The position numbers and the translations under genes were made by a program. The notes under the pieces are model-generated. The model was given only the letters and a program-made list of their open reading frames with translations, ran no database searches and was not told the DNA's origin. A DNA stretch of 64,000 bases from contig NC_134476.1 of NCBI RefSeq assembly GCF_964194025.1, forward strand, positions 34,410,001 to 34,474,000, read 5' to 3'. This DNA is from Convolutriloba macropyga. Lineage: Eukaryota. Positions 1,243-10,414 of this stretch are shown here, one piece after another. Each line of letters begins with the position of its first letter. Position 1 is the stretch's first letter.

Positions 1243-1396
1243 TGTAATGAACTCATAAAGAACTTGACTTTTGAGCAGTCAGAACGATAATTTGAATATA
1301 GAACGTGCAAAATGAGGTAGACCAAGACAACACACCAAGACAATATGAATTGATGATTAACAACTTTAAGCAGAGTTATAGATGTAGTTGATGACA
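1243..1396 (+). repeat. 5' LTR (154 bp)
   Basis: TGTAATGAAC...GATGACA, identical by eye to 10261-10414. Confidence 0.97.
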
Positions 1397-1410
1397 TGGC
1401 GCACCAACGT
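1397..1410 (+). other. Primer-binding site, tRNA-Lys-like
   Basis: TGGCGCACCAACGT directly after the LTR; matches the tRNA-Lys(CUU)-type PBS TGGCGCCCAACGT with one extra A. Confidence 0.7.
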
Positions 1411-1507
1411 TAGAAGGCACGAACCCTTGATTGCAGCCTGCCAACACTCGAAGCTAAGTCCAAAGCCATAGCACCCCCATCATTATTTTTTCGAATAATT
1501 TTCTAAC

Positions 1508-2320
1508 ACCCCGCCGTTTTTTTTACGGACAGTACCCCCACCCAGGCAGTGGAGGTACCCCAGCCAAGTTTCGGTCTACCCAACCCACCCTCAGAGGTCG
1601 AACCCCGTGGTTTACGGACGGCACCCCCCCCCCCCCCCAACCAGGGAGCGGAGGAATCCCAGCCAAGTTTCGGTCTACCCAACCCACCCTCAGAGGTCAA
1701 ACCCCGTGGTTTACGGACGGCACCCCCCACCCAGGGAGCGGAGGAATCCCAGCCAAGTTTCGGTCTACCCAAACCACCCTCAGAGGTCGAACCCCGTGGT
1801 TTAAGGACGGAACCCCCCAACCAGGGAGCGGAGGAACCCCAGCCAAGTTTCGGTCTACCCAACCCACCCTCAGAGGTCGAACCCCGTGGTTTACGGACGG
1901 CACCCCCCAACCAGGGAGCGGAGGAATCCCAGCCAAGTTTCCGTCTACTGAACCCACCCTCAGCGGTCGAACCCCGTGGTTTACGGACGGCAACCCACCA
2001 ACCAGGGAGTGGAGGAATCCCAGCCAAGTTTCGGTCAAACCAACCCCCCCTCAGAGGTTGAACCCCGTGGTTTACGGACGGCACCCCCCACCCAGGGAGC
2101 GCAGGAACCCTAGCCAGCTTTCGGTCTACCAAGCCCACCCTCAGAGGTCGAACCCAGTGGTTTACGGACAACACCCCCAACTAGGGAGTGGAGGAACCCC
2201 AGCAAAGTTTTGGTCTACCCAACCCATCACCAGAGGTTAAACCCCGTAGTTTTTCGGACGACACCCCCAACCAGGCAGTGGAGGCGCCCCAACCAAAGTT
2301 GAGTCTACCCAAACCACCCT
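1508..2320 (+). repeat. Tandem array, 90-bp unit, about 9 copies (inside BEL element)
   Basis: CAGCCAAGTTTCGGTCTACC-type motif recurs at about 1561, 1660, 1750, 1840, 1930, 2021, 2111, 2200 and 2290; C-rich plus strand. Confidence 0.95.
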
Positions 2321-2356
2321 TCTCCGGTCACTCGGCAATTCCACCCGCAAGCGGCA

Positions 2357-3480
2357 TTCCCCAGCCTAGTTTTTCCTGGCCAACCAGGATTCCCCACCAG
2401 CAACTACCAACCTGTAGCAGCATTCTGCAGCAGTTTTTCCTGGCTAACCAGGTTTCTCAGCAGCAGCAAGCAACGACAAGCGTCTTTCCCCAGCCTAGTT
2501 TTTCCTGGCCAACCAGGATTCCCCACCAGCATCTTCTAACCAGCAGCAGCAATCTGTAGAAGTTTTTCCTAGCTAACCAGGGTTCTCAGCAGCAGCAAGC
2601 AACGACAAGCGCCTTTCCCCAGCTAGTTTTTCCTGGCCAACCAGGATTCCCCACCAGCATCTACCAACCAGCAGCAGCAATCTGCAGAAATTTTCTTGGC
2701 TAACCAGGGTTCCCAGCAGCATCTATCAAGAAGAAGCGTTATTCCCCAGCCTAGTTTTTCCTGGCCAACCAGGATTCCCCACCAGCATCTACCAACCTGC
2801 AACAGCATTCTGCAGCAGTTTTTCCTGGCTAACCAGGTTTCTCAGCAGCAGCAAGCAACGACAAGCCTCTTTCCCCAGTCTAGTTTTTCCTGGCCAACCA
2901 GGATTCCCCACCAGCATCTACCAACCCGCAGCAGCAATCTGCAGAAGTTTTTCCTGGCTAACCAGGGTTATCAGCAGCAGCAAGCAACGACAAGCGTCTT
3001 TCCCCAGCTAGTTTTTCCTGGCCAACCAGGATTCCCCACCAGCAGCTACTAACCAGCAGCAGCAATCTGCAGAAGTTTTCCTGGCTAACCAGGAATCCCG
3101 GCAGCATCAAGCAAGAACAAGCGTTATTCGCCAGCCTAGTTTTTCCTGGCCAACCAGGATTCCCCACCAGCAGCTACCAACCAGCAGCAGCAATCTGCAG
3201 AAGTTTTCCTGGCTAACAGGAGTTCCCAGCAGCAGTAAGCAACTACAAGCGTCTTTCCCCAGCCTTGTTTTCCTGGCCAACCAGGATTCTTCATCAGCAG
3301 CTACAAACCAACAGCAGCTTTGTGCAGCAGTTTTACTGGAGAACCAGGGTTCCCAGCAGCAGAAAGCAACGGCAAGCGTCATTCCCCAGCCTTGTTTTCC
3401 TGGCCAACCAGCAGCCACCAGCCAAGAGCAGCATTCTGAAGCAGCTTTCCTGGCTAACTAGGATTTCCAACAGCAGCAAC
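2357..3480 (+). repeat. Tandem array, about 129-bp unit, about 9 copies, each with two CCTGG-CYAA-CCAGG hairpins
   Basis: Unit starts at about 2361, 2490, 2619, 2746, 2875, 3003, 3131, 3258 and 3385; CAG-rich; units 1-3 resemble units 4-6 (higher-order repeat). Confidence 0.95.
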
Positions 3481-3566
3481 CCAAATCCACTTCACCTGAG
3501 CACCCAGAATCTTTCCTCTACATCATAACTCACTTATTGTCTCGACGTCCACTGACTATATGTGAC

Positions 3567-4184
3567 ATGCGATATCATCTTTTCAAGTCTTCGAAAACGA
3601 AGTTCATATTGATCACAGATTCGCAGGGAAGACATTTCGAATCTGGAAACCTGAATATAGTATCTCTTCCCGGCGCAACCATCAAAGACGTATATAACTT
3701 TGTTCCCCCTATCAATCAGTACTGTAAAATTATACTGTTTATTGGCGGTAACGACTTGTATAACGGCTGCAAACCTTCAGACAAAACACCAATTGACATC
3801 GCAAATCAGTTGATTGAACTCGCAAATTTTTTGATCGAAAGAACCAAAGAAGTATACCTCATAGGAATACCAGAACGAAACGAAAACAAACAGCGATCAG
3901 CAGCCGTTAACGAAATCCTCGAGAAAGTGTCCAACAGAACTCGTAGTCACAAACCCTCAGTCAACTGGAAGTATAGAGGAATCAGTCAGCATATATCAGG
4001 CGCTAAATACTTCAATCCTAAAGATCATCTTCACCTTAACGAATGTGGTCGCTCAAACCTTCACCACCTTATCAAACAAAAGATTCTGTACAAGGATTAT
4101 AACGTAATGTTGAATAACAGTGGTCACAGCAAAATTTACGAGTGTAAACGGAATTCATGTACGTGCATCTGCTCAACCTGGTAG
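3567..4184 (+). CDS. SGNH/GDSL-hydrolase (esterase)-like protein inside the BEL element
   Basis: Motif blocks in canonical order: I ILITDSQ (Ser nucleophile), II SLPGAT, III LFIGGND, V DHLH; Cys-rich tail. First ATG at 3567; frame is open from 3462. Confidence 0.85.
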   Translation: MRYHLFKSSKTKFILITDSQGRHFESGNLNIVSLPGATIKDVYNFVPPINQYCKIILFIGGNDLYNGCKPSDKTPIDIANQLIELANFLIERTKEVYLIGIPERNENKQRSAAVNEILEKVSNRTRSHKPSVNWKYRGISQHISGAKYFNPKDHLHLNECGRSNLHHLIKQKILYKDYNVMLNNSGHSKIYECKRNSCTCICSTW

Positions 4185-4228
4185 TTTCTACTTCAACTTA
4201 AATTTCACAAATCCTCTTTACATTAAAT

Positions 4229-4420
4229 GTTCACCAGGCTCTGTGAGTAGCCTCTTGAACTACTTGGGAGATAACAGATTACTTCCAAAACATCTCTACT
4301 AGCTGTCCCCAGGTTCCGTGAGGTGCCATTGGTCAGCTGGTAGAGACAGCATTGTCTTCTAACTGTCCCCAGGTTCCGTGAGGTGCCACCGGTCAGTTAG
4401 CAAGACAAATCTCCCCAAGT
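4229..4420 (+). other. Structured RNA element (three GUGA-loop hairpins) between the SGNH ORF and gag
   Basis: Stems 4229-4260 (GTTCA/TGAAC, AGGCT/AGCCT), 4293-4346 (TCTCTACTAGCTG/CAGCTGGTAGAGA) and 4352-4408 (TTGTCTTCTAACTG/CAGTTAGCAAGACAA); enclosing helix 4262-4272/4409-4420. Confidence 0.75.
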
Positions 4421-4588
4421 CAAAAGACCTCTTACATATTCAACGTAGTAATTCGGATTTCTTGTGACCAAATACCAACATCAAATCGTCCGCAAGAAAT
4501 TATAATAGACCAACACAGCCTCAATTCTTTTGAGCATACGTAAAAAGATAAAACTTTACCTACAGAGTTCTATGAAGAAAAGTTAACC

Positions 4589-7500
4589 ATGCCTGCCAAA
4601 ACCGTTGAAAGTCAGCGTAGTTTTCAAAAATATTGCGTTTCGAGCATAAACGATCTGATCGAAGACCTTTCAACTGATGAGAATCTGCCATACGACGAGT
4701 TCATAGAAGGAGAAAAGGAAGTTCAGCAGTTGCTATCTGAGCTAGAAAAGACTAATGAGTTTCTCCTACTCAATCTAGACGAATCAGAACATTGTCAGTC
4801 TTTAGATGAGACATTAGCAGTTAAACGCGACTCCCGCAGAAAACTTAACTTTGTTCGGAGAAAATTAAAAGTCAGTTCTGATCTTGTCAACAATTCAACG
4901 GATACAGAAACAAGATTACCAACAAACCTCCAACAACAAACACTACAAAACGAATCAGAACACAGAGAGATTCCGCAGGAAACTTTATCAGCTTCAACTG
5001 GTATAACACTTAGTTCCAATCAGCCGGCAACGTTTCAAAATACAGAAACATCAAACTTTTCCTTCCATGCATCAACCACAAGAAATTTGTTTGATCAAAC
5101 TACGTTTCCACAACATCAAGCCTCATTTGGTCTGGCAAATTGTCAGGATCACACTCATAGGCAACAATTTATCACTACCCCGATCTCATCAGGAACTCTC
5201 CCGACACTAAAACTTGACACCTTTAATGGCAATCCCCTCACTTGGACAGATTGGATACAGTTATTCGAGTCTGTCATTGACTCGAGGCCACTTAGCACTA
5301 CAGAAAAGATGACGCACTTACAATCACTTCTCACTGGACAAGCAAAGAGTTTAGTTAAAGGCTACGGTTGCAATGGTCAATGCTATCACCAAGCTCTAGC
5401 CGACCTGAAGAAAAAGTATGGCAAGTCTAGCGTCATCGTAAATGCGTACTTAGAAAAACTTGCATCGTTTCCGAGCCCGTCAGCCCAGCGACCCAAAATT
5501 TTGACAATTTTAGTATATTTATAAACGACTTGGTGAATACTTTTACACGCCTGGAATACGAACACGACCTCAAATCAACGATGAATACCCAAGTTGCAAT
5601 ACAGAAATTACCTTATAGTCAACTAGTTGACTGGAGCAAACATTGTGCACAACATCAGATTGAATCTCCCTCCTTAGAGCAGTTCGCCGAATGGCTCTCT
5701 TTGACTGCTCAAACCTTCGAGAATTTAGAACCTTTTTCTCGAAACAAGCTGGGCAGAAATGACTCATCAAATCCGCGGAGCAATCGTTCAAAATATGGGA
5801 ACAATCACCCTAGATATGATCAAAACCAAATTCAAGGAACATCAAGATATGTATCCACGCAAGACAAGATTTCCGACATGCAGACAACTTCAAAATTTAA
5901 CAAAGAACGTAGTCAACATCAAAGGCAGTTCAAGAGTTCTAGAAATCAGCAGCAACAATTAGAAGAAGACCAAAACGTTCCTCAAACCAGCAGAGCTTCA
6001 AAGTGTCTGTTCGAGGACGGCAACCACAGAATATACATGTGCGAAAAATTCAAAAACATGTCCGTTAAGCAGCGTAGGGACGCCATCTATCAACTCAAAG
6101 CCTGTTTCAATTGCCTGAAAATGGGTCACTCTTCAAAAGAGTGCCCTTCTACGCAGAGTTGCAGAAGTTGTAGCAAACGTCATCATACACACTTACACGA
6201 TGAGTCTAGCCAGTCAGCGAATTCAACACATTGCAGTACCGCTGGATCATCAGAACGTCCTGCACTCCTTCAGATACTCCCCGTAACACTCTCAAGGGAT
6301 GGTAAGTCAGTAAACACGTACGCCTTTCTGGACAATGGAAGCGTCGTATCAATGATGTTAACGAAAACTGCTTCCGCACTTGGAATCGTTCTTGACGAAA
6401 AAACCCAACACACAGAATTGCACAAAGGAATCCATGGAACAAAAAGTGTGTCACTCACCAACGTTAACCTTTCAATTAAAGGAATGAGTTCTAATCAAAC
6501 TTTTGATATAGAAGACGTTCAGGTTTCGGCCGACATAGAGTTTCCCCAATATAGTTTAGAATGGATTCGAAAAGTGTGTCAGGAATTTGATCACTTGAAA
6601 CATATTTCATACCCCGACGTTGACATCAATCAAATCTCTATTTTGATTGGATGCGACAATTTTGATCTCATTGCACCTAGAGAGATTCACTATGGTCCTC
6701 CAAATACCACAAGAGCTATTCAAACAGAACTTGGATGGACTGCGTCAGGGAAAACTGATCTGCCCTCAGCAGTAACATGCCAGTCTCAAATTGTCAAAAG
6801 TGAGTCTACAGAGTGCTGCGAAATTGACGACACTCTGTATAACGAAGTACTCAACTGGTACAAAGTTGAAAACTTGCCGTCCAATAAGGACGTCACAAAA
6901 TCAGAGACCGATAAACGCGCATCAGACATTTTGGAATCTACTGTAGAGTTCAAGGAAGGACGATACCACGTTGTGCTTTTATGGAAAAACAAACCCGACC
7001 TGCCAAATAACTTCACTTTAGCCTTCAAACAACTCAACGTCCTAGTTAAGCGACTAGAAAGAGACCCGGAATTGTTAGAGAAATACACGAAAACAATCGA
7101 CGAAGATCTGAAGAAGAATTACATTGAAGAAGTTCCCATAGATAAAACGACTCCAAACATTTGGCACATTCCGCATCACCCTGTCATTAACCCTAACAAA
7201 GCAAAAATAAGAAAAGTTTTGAACGCAGCATCAAAATATCATGGTGTATCATTAAATAACCAACTCATGCCAGGGCCTGACTTGATGCAAAACTTGACCG
7301 GTGTTATCTGCAGGTTCAGGCAGAAAAAAGTTGCGATATCTGCTGACCTTGAAGGCATGTTTATGCAAGTAGGTGTTCGACCACAGGACTAAAAGTTTTT
7401 AAGATTTCTGTGGAAGAAAGGCGAAAAGATAATTTGCTTCCAATTTAGAAGGCACATTTTTAGAGCAAGGTGTTCACCGACATAATGTAACTTCGCCTTG

Positions 7501-10143
7501 CGACGAACAGCGGAGGACAACTGTCAGCAGTACCCTTCAGCAGCCAAGGCAGTCTTACGTTCCTTTTACATGGATGACCTATATCACGCAACAGACACAG
7601 TCGAAGAAGCAATTTCCATTTCAAGAGATCTGAAAAATTTGCTTTTGCTAGGTGGTTTCAATTTAACCAAGTGGTCCTCCAACTCACTTGAAACAATGAA
7701 GTCAATCCCTAAAGAAGACCAGAATCCTAACGATACAAAGGAGTCTACCATTCTACCGCCTATTCCAAAATTCGGAGAAAAAGACGAACAGCCATCATCA
7801 ACTGATACCGAGAGAGTATTAGGAATACAGTGGTCTGTGTCTAGAGACTCTTTCGTTATAAACAGCAAAACATTTAAAAAAGTAGATCTAGAGAACCCCA
7901 CCCAGAGAAAGATTTTGAAGAGTGTTTCATCCATCTATGACCCAATTGGGTTTATTGCGCCCTTCACAGTGCGGTTAAGAACAATCATGCAGGACGTCTG
8001 GCGTTTAGGAAAACAATGGGACAACCTGTTACCTACCAGTTTTGATGCAACACTGAAGTCTCTAATGACAGAAATCAGAAACATTTCCAGCATCGAAATA
8101 CCACGATTTCTGTTCGAGGAGAAAAAGACACCTAAAGAATCAACTCTTCATATCTTTTGCGACGCTTCTCTAACAGCAATGTGTGCCGTAGCATATTTAA
8201 AAACAGAGTATACAGATTCAACTTGTTCAATCAATTTTATAATGGGAAAAGCAAAAGTTCCCCCGATTCGACAGCAAAGCATACCTAAACTAGAACTGGC
8301 AGCAGCTGTTATCGGAGTCCGGCTAGCCTTCTTCATAAAGCAACAGCTCGATGTAACAATTAGCAAAACGACATTTTGGTCGGTTAGCGCAACCACCCTA
8401 CAATGGATTTACAACTCCAAAGAAAGACACAAAATGTATGTAGCAAACAGGGTTGCAGAAATTCTTGAAACAACTTCACCATCAGACTGGCGTCATGTTC
8501 CAGGTGTCTTGAATCCAGCTGACGACGGAAAAAGAGGGTTGAAATTAAACGAGTTCAAACCGGATTGTCGTTGGTTTAACGGCCCACTTTTCTTGAAACA
8601 TGACCCAACAAATTGGCCTGCGACAAAAGTGCCAAATTACCCTTTAGCAGCTTCAATGGCTCTCTCAAGGGCAAACCAGCCACTCATTGACCCAAAACGG
8701 TTCTCAAGCTTTGAAAAACTTAAACGCGTTCTCGCATTTGTAATTTTGTTTATCAGCAACCTCAAAACTACAACGAAGAGTTTCCACTTGACCATAAAAA
8801 CAGTCAATATGAGCAAAACTTATCTACTCAGGCAATCTCAAGAACTCTCATTTGAGGAAGAGCTAGATTGTCTTCGCAAAGACCAAACCGTTCCAGCACA
8901 CTCAAAAATAAAAAATTTCTTGCCCTTCATTTCCGACGACGGAGTTATAAGAGCCAATGGAAGTCTTGCCAATGCAAATCAACTGGAAGAAAACTTACAA
9001 ACCCCAGTAATCCTAAGTGGCAAAGAACATATAACTTTTCTTATGCTTAGAGACATTCACAACCACAATGGACATACAGGACTCGACCATTGCCGTTTCA
9101 TTGTTCAACAGTCCTTTATTGTAATCAGCCTTCGCTCCACCTTATGAACAATAATCAACCGATGTTTCGATTGCCGTCGACAAAAAGCAGTAGCGTTGCA
9201 ACCTCAAATGTCACCCCTGCCAGACTTTAGAATTCCAAATACTGAAAACTTTAATTTTCAAAATACGGGTGTAGATTTCTTTGGTCCTTTCGCTATAAAG
9301 GCCAGCGACAACTTGTATCCAAAACGATACGCTTGCATCTTCACTTGCCTTACCACGAGAGCCGTTCATCTAGAACCAGCTTACCATTTAAGCACTGATT
9401 CCTTTATTCAAGCGATACTGAGGTTTACTGCCCGTCGAGGAAACCCTCACCTCATTGTCTCTGATAATGGTAGAAATTTCGTTGGCGCTTCTCGTGAACT
9501 CATTACAAAAGTAAACCAATTCGACCACCAGGAAATCAGTGACCGATTACTCAAAGAGACCATCGAATGGAAGTTCATCCCACCATACGCATCCCACTTC
9601 GGAGGAGCATGGGAAAGACTCGTGCAGTCCTCAAAACGAATTCTCTACTCAGTGATTGGCTCTCAAATGTTGACCGAAGAAACATTTCACTCGTTCCTAA
9701 CTCAAGTCGAAGAAATCCTGAACAGCAGGCCTTTGACTTACGTCCCAGACAACGGTTTGTCTTATCAACCAATCACGCCTAATCATTTCCTTATCGGTCG
9801 ACCTCACAAACGTTTGCCGTCAATACTATCAATCACTAAAGATTACAACAAGGACTGGAAAAGATGTATTACCCTTTCACATCAATTTTGGACACGACTC
9901 CTGCGCGAGTTCATACCCACAATGGCTAGGAGACCCAAATGGATAAAAGATCAGAAGCCTCTCGAAGTTGGTAGCCTTGTTTGGATATTGGAAGACATGA
10001 CTCCACGAAGTATTTGGCCCGTCGGTATTGTCGAAAAATTGTCTCACAGCAATGATGGAAAAGTTAGATCATGCGAAATCAGAACTGGGTTCGGGAAACA
10101 AACAAAACCAGTAAACAAATTGGCACTAGTAATTGACGACTAG
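4589..10143 (+). pseudogene. gag-pol: BEL/Pao gag-pol polyprotein, disrupted
   Basis: Gag LPTLKLDTFNGNPLTW; knuckles CFNCLKMGHSSKEC and CRSCSKRHHTHLH; protease FLDNGS; RT YMDD; RNaseH HIFCDAS/IPKLEL; integrase GVDFFGP, SDNG, WERL. Frameshift at about 5495; stops at 7390, 7483 and 9145. Confidence 0.95.
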
Positions 10144-10246
10144 GAAACGGATCATAACGTCGAAACAGGACACAAATTTAATGAACAGTAACCACATTCA
10201 CAAATTTTAACAAATCATTAACCCTTTAGGTTTTGACTACAACGCC

Positions 10247-10260
10247 AAAACGAGGGGGAC
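10247..10260 (+). other. Polypurine tract
   Basis: AAAACGAGGGGGAC directly before the 3' LTR. Confidence 0.85.
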
Positions 10261-10414
10261 TGTAATGAACTCATAAAGAACTTGACTTTTGAGCAGTCAG
10301 AACGATAATTTGAATATAGAACGTGCAAAATGAGGTAGACCAAGACAACACACCAAGACAATATGAATTGATGATTAACAACTTTAAGCAGAGTTATAGA
10401 TGTAGTTGATGACA
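10261..10414 (+). repeat. 3' LTR (154 bp)
   Basis: Identical to 1243-1396; followed by TSD AGTTG. Confidence 0.97.

Follow-up and report, generated by a model that had tools for sequence, protein, structure and literature searches.

Two tandem hairpins, HP1 and HP2, lie between an SGNH esterase ORF and gag in a BEL/Pao retrotransposon of Convolutriloba macropyga, and hairpins of the same build recur beside the SGNH ORF in other retroelement families of this genome. From sequence comparison, we regard the fold, its selection, and its spread as very nearly certain. An earlier note on this DNA had proposed a functional RNA structure acting as an internal ribosome entry site (IRES), or in Gag binding or dimerisation. 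A functional, selected sense-strand RNA structure is supported by conservation, cross-family pairing, and an excess of G-U cells; the two proposed roles were not borne out. We tentatively read HP1 and HP2 as docking sites for the SGNH protein, with gag reached by leaky scanning and not by internal entry, and judge the prospects of this reading to be just short of balanced.

An esterase-bearing BEL/Pao element and its hairpins

The window, that is, the whole stretch of DNA analyzed here, comprises 64,000 nt of C. macropyga NC_134476.1 (34,410,001-34,474,000, forward strand), and positions are counted from its start. Positions 1243-10414 hold an LTR retrotransposon of the BEL/Pao type, in which gag is preceded by an SGNH esterase ORF; we found LTRs, a target duplication, a DUF1759 Gag, a Pao peptidase domain, and an integrase with DUF5641. 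Its features, all on the forward strand, are as follows.

1243..1396, +: 5' LTR (TG...CA), 154/154 identity to the 3' LTR; 5-bp target duplication at both flanks
1397..1414, +: primer-binding-site-like stretch starting with TGG, immediately 3' of the LTR
1418..3566, +: leader of 2.1 kb with a 90-nt array (1522-2320) and a 128-nt array (2348-3411)
3560..3565, +: start-stop uORF (AUG UGA), 7 nt before the SGNH start; AUG in 40 of 50 copies examined
3567..4184, +: SGNH/GDSL esterase ORF, 205 aa, from Pfam, alignment, and a structure model
4229..4260, +: HP0, a decayed third hairpin copy; it folds, 162/224 positions are identical in old copies, and the covariance model gives no match
4262..4272, +: 5' arm of the closing stem, from the fold; conserved in part
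4293..4346, +: HP1, with a 13-bp basal stem and core 4303-4336; 341/377 identical in old copies
4352..4408, +: HP2, with a 14-bp basal stem and core 4363-4396; 354/388 identical in old copies
4409..4420, +: 3' arm of the closing stem, from the fold; conserved in part
4589..10143, +: BEL/Pao gag-pol (DUF1759, zinc knuckle, Peptidase_A17, rve, DUF5641)
10261..10414, +: 3' LTR, with a purine tract just upstream

In the window copy, gag-pol is split into four open frames, which together with the identical LTRs suggests a defective copy that was inserted recently or mobilised in trans. The gag AUG at 4589 has A at -3. The leader (1418..3566) contains one ATG, compared with 6.9 in shuffles, and 18 CAT. 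Both leader arrays are GC-rich and free of AUG, and the 128-nt unit contains a pair of small hairpins as well as a pyrimidine tract with CAG at its end. No match to the spliced-leader sequence was found within the window, and a candidate splice acceptor before gag (4554-4565) was rejected, as it is not kept in copies of middle and old age.

The SGNH ORF retains catalytic Ser19, GGND, and DxxH and has a Cys-rich tail in the alignment. Its Pfam match to Lipase_GDSL (E 1e-4) falls slightly below the cut-off, and its structure model (pLDDT 89) finds a best structural match with Z 16.9, rmsd 2.1, and 159 aligned residues. With an SGNH fold and the Ser, Asn, and His blocks present, the ORF belongs by structure and sequence with the SGNH/GDSL hydrolases. 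No relative was found by sequence in the PDB, and neither Oskar nor the ZfL2-1 esterase was among the matches listed in the fold searches. The ORF and its relatives widely retain R-(Y/F)-H at the N-terminus and clustered His/Cys residues at the C-terminus; residues 180-205, outside the fold matches, could be a metal site.

The 192-nt region 4229-4420 has a predicted minimum free energy of -83.2 kcal/mol (z -7.55), and none of 200 shuffles was equally stable. Pair probabilities were 0.94-1.00 in HP1 and HP2 and 0.82-0.92 in the third hairpin and closing stem. The pairings named in the earlier note were recovered: 4293-4305/4334-4346 forms 13 pairs, one of them G-U; 4352-4365/4394-4408 forms 14 pairs with C4401 bulged; and the compensatory swap lies between G4302-C4337 and A4362-U4397. 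The two copies are 60 nt apart, as the note had stated, with 90% identity over 42 nt, and the 19-nt apex occurs twice in the window against an expectation of 0. The quoted apex is present in both copies, and the conserved part is larger than quoted: a 34-nt core (4303-4336 and 4363-4396) consisting of CC/GG, a 3x3 internal loop, GGU/GCC, a U.U mismatch, CC/GG, and a 4-nt loop (GUGA). In HP1, the 3x3 loop is CCA 4309-4311 / AUU 4328-4330 and the mismatch U4315.U4324; in HP2, these are CCA / ACC and U4375.U4384.

The family search by DNA yielded at least 44 matches (best 40 of 88 candidates scored), and 37 region-covering copies were aligned. Identity to the window in the seven oldest copies was 90.5% for HP1 and 91.2% for HP2, compared with 90.9% for the gag start, 70-72% for the flanks, and 72% for the third hairpin and linker. 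Because 90-91% identity stands against 70-72% in the flanks of old copies, HP1 and HP2 are, on this alignment, under selection; the third hairpin, linker, and closing stem are not clearly so. Over 27 distinct copies, helix pairing reached 93-97% in HP1 and HP2 and 86% in the third hairpin. The GTGA loop ascribed to the third hairpin was not recovered: the predicted loop is GUG, with no GUGA tetraloop, and the flank-like identity in the seven old copies agrees with its decay. The closing stem 4262-4272/4409-4420 is present, yet only 82% paired over the 27 copies, with the middle pair in 4 of 27. Covariation, also claimed, is absent within the BEL family, where 1 of 64 pairs shows two-sided change, a value matched by 485 of 500 shuffles; it holds between the paralogous hairpins and between families.

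The motif in other retroelements

The SGNH protein search of the genome (best 150 of 1,075 candidates scored) led to 76 fetched loci, which were grouped into 21 families: the window BEL family, one Ty3/gypsy-type family (protease-RT-RNase H-integrase order), one unclassified family, and LINEs for the rest. In the LINEs, the SGNH ORF comes first, followed by a separate ORF1 and then an endonuclease-RT ORF2. Pfam gave no name for the ORF1 of these LINEs, which we take from its Cys pattern to be of "CR1/L2-like" or "PHD-like" type.

The spacers of the SGNH families contain hairpins of the same build with different letters. The common motif is a C-G closed stem, a 3x3 loop whose 3' side begins with A, and a short stem with a U.U mismatch. 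Across 10 families, the 16 hairpins compared show two-sided change at 11 of 14 pairs and no change at all at the C-G pair beneath the loop. The cross-family covariation score (0.477 vs 0.186 ± 0.025) is inflated because the rows were picked for pairing, and the position of the motif is a less biased test. A strict by-eye descriptor gave 21 matches, in 17 of 65 spacers, compared with 0-7 in 20 shuffles and 11 on the opposite strand; in its place we used a covariance model trained on the 16 hairpins. The model gave 83 matches in 89 loci, counts that refer to the fetched loci and not to the whole genome. In the 69 SGNH loci (362 kb), 66 matches reached at least 18.3 bits, and these lay in the spacer (51), just before the SGNH start (11), in repeated units (2), or antisense (2). 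HP1 and HP2 score 34.5 and 36.7 bits, both being training sequences of the model.

The motif was found beside the ORF in 19 of the 21 SGNH families. Thirteen of these scored at least 18 bits (the 9 used in training and 4 of the 12 held out), and six more fit a looser descriptor that has no null of its own; for the remaining two, neither the model nor the looser descriptor gave a call. The motif also occurs in contigs of a second organism: among four metagenome loci found by protein alone, two have spacer scores of 19.5 and 19.6 bits, one has 11.4 bits before the SGNH ORF, and one is without a clear match.

Elements carry up to seven or more motif copies, which are confined to scanned non-coding sequence within the 5' half. 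Upper stems are 0.99 identical between copies of one element and 0.79 between families, while lower stems are 0.44 identical within an element and 0.29 between families (7 families). The C-G closing pair and the 3' A are near-invariant, in 45-46 of 46 model-selected rows. We read the motif as sense-strand RNA because G-U cells exceed A-C cells (58 vs 24) and antisense folds are weaker. The description of GUGA as a GNRA tetraloop fits the window's BEL family and does not extend further: other families have UUUA, UUAA, UUCA, AUGA, or longer loops, so that a GNRA loop is not conserved among the homologues compared. In Rfam, known self-cleaving ribozymes included, no family reached its gathering score. 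An H/ACA or scaRNA-like identity was rejected, with SNORA74 at 21.1 bits against the 71 required and ACA at differing distances after the BEL and L042 hairpins and lacking after others.

An exact search with a 21-nt apex pattern matched the genome 72 times, and the control gave 0. All 24 fetched non-BEL loci with the apex belong to one endonuclease-RT LINE family without SGNH, and in most of them the 5' end is sharply defined, about 278 nt upstream of the apex. In eight diverged copies of this family, the apex is 96% identical, compared with 79-91% elsewhere (leader, ORF1 start). At one locus (L042:2959-3045), the ORF1 AUG is predicted to be paired in an extension of the basal stem of the hairpin. 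A second SGNH-less LINE family (L245, L249, L251) has hairpins of the type of locus L077 before an unrelated ORF1; leaders of the L245 type likewise stop about 20 nt short of the AUG. The hairpin variant of each SGNH-less carrier has an exact counterpart in an SGNH-bearing family of the same genome.

Outside these carriers, the motif was absent at the 18.3-bit level from about five other BEL families (20 loci, all without SGNH), including the nearest one (46% gag identity), and from 20 downstream loci, in which six LINE 3' ends are visible. A sister LINE group (20 loci, 30-49% ORF1 identity) had no leader SGNH and nothing above 17.7 bits, and the SL RNA genes lacked the motif. Among 30 of 159 leader-capped loci examined, two had SGNH and both had motif matches; three more were the second SGNH-less family, and 25 had no sense match.

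SGNH-LINE copies at 27 of 160 loci (e.g., L070, L080, L085, L086, and L101) begin with a match to the acoel spliced leader, the sequence of which is printed in PMC9911081, mostly 60-165 nt before the SGNH start. At 16 loci around the 5' hairpin of one family, the leader joins at -66 (7), -32 (3), or -93 (1) or is absent (5), and the -32 junction is preceded by TTTCAG in longer copies. These junctions suggest that the LINE RNA was trans-spliced before insertion. The exact leader-plus-GT has 1,271 genome-wide matches, and tandem SL RNA gene arrays lie at G000:C9 ~23.1-23.7 Mb (L204-L206). In the spacers of L065, L076, and L095, a degenerate spliced leader precedes ORF1 by about 10 nt, whereas L084 and L093 combine the same SGNH and hairpins with a different ORF1. 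This leader is likely a remnant of an event that fused the cassette to another leader-capped LINE.

The BEL SGNH is closest to LINE SGNHs (51% identity to L065), and in unrooted trees this grouping has support of 96/91 (27 unbroken rows) and 88/90 (15 rows). A clade of BEL and gypsy-type SGNHs was rejected (p-AU 0.005, for a group named after the first tree was inspected). We infer from this tree, which has no root, that LTR elements acquired SGNH from LINEs twice, separately.

Access to the downstream reading frame

The 16 unbroken SGNH ORFs contain 11 out-of-frame AUGs, compared with 68.5 ± 5.6 under synonymous shuffling (0 of 300 as low), and five internal Met codons (0.15% vs 1.7% in ORF1/gag), with no internal AUG at all in 10 of the 16. 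The controls, ORF1/gag (11) and ORF2/pol (8), showed no AUG depletion. SGNH AUG starts have a pyrimidine at -3 in 12 of 14, and two ORFs are without an AUG start. Likewise, 20 spacers contain eight AUGs against 40.5 ± 5.0 expected, distributed as six from the stop to the last hairpin (25.3 ± 4.4 expected) and two after it (11.7 expected). The downstream starts have a purine at -3 in 18 of 20, with a small bias since they were picked by eye. No common splice acceptor was found near the downstream AUG in the 20 spacers.

A weak upstream start, a lack of intervening AUGs, and a strong downstream start, as expected of leaky scanning, were thus found across families, and only partly in the BEL family. 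In the latter, the SGNH start has G at -3, AUGs are fixed at 4043 (25 of 50 copies), 4107 (20 of 50), and 4157 (43 of 50), and one at 4227 is frequent; the frames they open are short, which would call for some reinitiation. The -83 kcal/mol structure in the scanning path also argues against leaky scanning in BEL. We propose that 40S subunits would skip the weak SGNH start, aided in BEL by the start-stop uORF, and would then scan the AUG-poor ORF and spacer to the strong AUG of gag or ORF1. On these AUG statistics, leaky scanning past SGNH is probable in the LINEs, and in the window's BEL family its chances lean only modestly in favor.

A comparable arrangement is that of rice tungro bacilliform virus, in which leaky scanning extends over 895 AUG-free nt (PMC3542737), with weak or non-AUG upstream starts, hundreds of AUG-free nt, and a strong downstream AUG. 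Unlike the elements studied here, it is a plant pararetrovirus with shunting, and the accessible parts of that source describe no repeated docking hairpin in the spacer.

An IRES tolerates AUGs upstream of its entry site. Internal initiation at gag, as the earlier note had suggested, or a reinitiation enhancer for gag/ORF1 behind the SGNH ORF, would suit the place of the motif 5-180 nt before the downstream AUG in all 20 spacers measured, a structure strong enough to hinder plain scanning, and the upstream AUGs that the BEL family retains. Such tolerance was not found across families, less clearly so in the BEL family: AUGs are missing upstream of, inside, and after the hairpins, and depletion from the stop to the last hairpin and over the whole SGNH ORF is needless for a 3' entry site. 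In addition, the motif is found ahead of the SGNH AUG and in spliced-leader-capped 5' UTRs of 215-270 nt that no long ORF precedes, where no IRES is needed. Since the SGNH ORFs and spacers are stripped of AUGs, the starts are weak, and the motif occurs in these short capped 5' UTRs, an IRES appears unlikely, and we consider this explanation, reinitiation included, improbable.

A possible reader of the hairpins

The 3x3 loop and mismatch stem are quite likely read by a protein. The putative reader would be the SGNH product, made in cis or provided by a different element, as SGNH is the only gene common to the LINE, BEL, and gypsy-type carriers. Upper stems that are constant within an element and different between families suit a family-tuned protein reader. 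Binding would load the RNA into a particle, perhaps a membrane-targeted one, and would damp scanning to the next AUG, thus acting as a switch from translation to transposition. The SGNH-less LINEs keep the hairpins, so a ligand must reach them in trans or from the host; because each uses a variant of an SGNH-bearing family, they would borrow the protein from SGNH-bearing elements. We also regard it as possible, with the chances leaning against it, that an active esterase and its own hairpin form a portable cassette with family-specific sites and leaky scanning, which would have been swapped among LINE, BEL/Pao, and Ty3/gypsy-type elements and pirated by site-only LINEs that borrow the protein across classes. 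Against docking of SGNH, the identity of copies within an element could come, at least in part, from duplication alone; the catalytic residues absent from Oskar are intact in the window protein; and no binding of oligo(A) RNA was seen with the ZfL2-1 esterase (PMC3905857).

The hairpin may instead bind a host protein (an export, localisation, or translation factor) in the manner of a constitutive transport element and be only a neighbor of SGNH, which we find rather unlikely. The motif accompanies 19 of 21 SGNH families and also two SGNH-less LINE families in which the hairpin is under selection; these carriers fit a host ligand equally well, and the shared geometry with a near-invariant C-G closing pair and 3' A fits one common reader. 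A host binder is opposed by the absence of the motif from most SGNH-less LINEs and BEL families examined, by upper stems fixed within a family and different between families, and by the exact variant of an SGNH-bearing family in both SGNH-less carriers. A stop-proximal stability element shielding the long RNA from nonsense-mediated decay, comparable to the RNA stability element (RSE) of Rous sarcoma virus, is very unlikely: the first hairpin lies no more than about 50 nt from the SGNH stop in many LINE families and about 6 kb follow this stop in the window element, yet HP1 starts 109 nt after the stop there, and copies occur before SGNH and in SGNH-less leaders with no preceding long-ORF stop. 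Tandem stable hairpins upstream of gag would suit a Gag-bound packaging or dimerisation signal, and a duplex of two HP1 cores is predicted at -35.0 compared with -32.4 kcal/mol for two hairpins, which is true of any hairpin. Gag binding is nevertheless hard to sustain because LINEs share the hairpin: the identical apex occurs in an endonuclease-RT LINE without Gag and is thus not limited to Gag-encoding elements. The BEL families without the motif, the nearest included, and a loop that is not palindromic or self-complementary also speak against it, and we give this role hardly any weight. Equally little credit is due to a DNA-level palindromic site (an internal promoter) or a small ribozyme or processing site. 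The core is palindrome-like in DNA and lies upstream of ORFs; against these roles stand the sense-strand excess of G-U over A-C cells, the weaker antisense folds, the few invariant bases, the lack of an Rfam family at gathering score, and 5' ends of copies that map to the spliced leader or 278 nt upstream, not to the hairpin.

Parts of this picture are already known, namely esterase ORFs common to retroelement classes (PMC5408684, PMC4120745), element-encoded RNA regulators (PMC10309623), and stop-proximal stability elements. In bdelloid rotifers, GDSL/SGNH ORFs are common to LTR, Penelope-like, and non-LTR elements (PMC5408684). As here, their esterase ORF has intact catalytic residues and was exchanged between unrelated retroelement classes; theirs is an ORF3 after pol, whereas that of the window is a separate first ORF, and the accessible parts of the source name no RNA structure travelling with the esterase. 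The esterases of ZfL2-1 and of CR1/L2 type IV ORF1, with a proposed role in RNP assembly and membrane targeting (PMC3905857, PMC4120745), also stand upstream of the endonuclease-RT ORF. They lie within ORF1 together with a coiled coil, whereas the esterase studied here stands as an ORF of its own ahead of ORF1 or gag, ends in a Cys-rich tail, and is depleted of AUG. Oskar OSK has an SGNH-like fold that binds RNA (PMC5785220) and differs from the window SGNH in lacking catalytic residues and, as far as that source goes, a defined RNA motif. The RSE, reported to act through PTBP1 (PMC5580461, PMC4764554), resembles HP1 and HP2 in being a cis element that follows an internal stop in a long retroelement RNA, whereas the motif of the window also occurs where no long ORF precedes it.

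Element-encoded pairs of a regulator and its RNA include Rev/RRE and the MS2 operator. CERV of Cer1, made from a spliced mRNA, is likewise an element-encoded regulator of RNA fate (PMC10309623). As in these three systems, the accessory protein proposed here would act on the RNA of its own element; unlike it, their regulators have no esterase fold. Searches of the open-access literature yielded no description of the motif, nor of a LINE that has three ORFs, is depleted of AUG, and is leader-capped. With its natural family variants, the short motif would allow a role of retroelement esterases in RNA binding to be tested directly. If the docking reading is true, three element classes would share a regulatory protein-RNA pair, which some exploit in trans across classes. 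Independently of this, the data point to three-ORF LINEs that are translated through long leaky scanning and receive their cap from host spliced-leader trans-splicing.

Further structures were seen near the motif. A second shared hairpin with a purine-rich internal loop is present in the 5' UTRs of L065, L067, L079, and L089 and in the SGNH-less loci L241-L243 and L253, which look like non-autonomous derivatives. In the 5' UTRs of L071, L072, L077, L080, and L245, the loop of a hairpin immediately 5' of the first AUG is complementary to a conserved strand further upstream; in three families this pairing encloses the 3x3 hairpin, and a pseudoknot or switch is possible.
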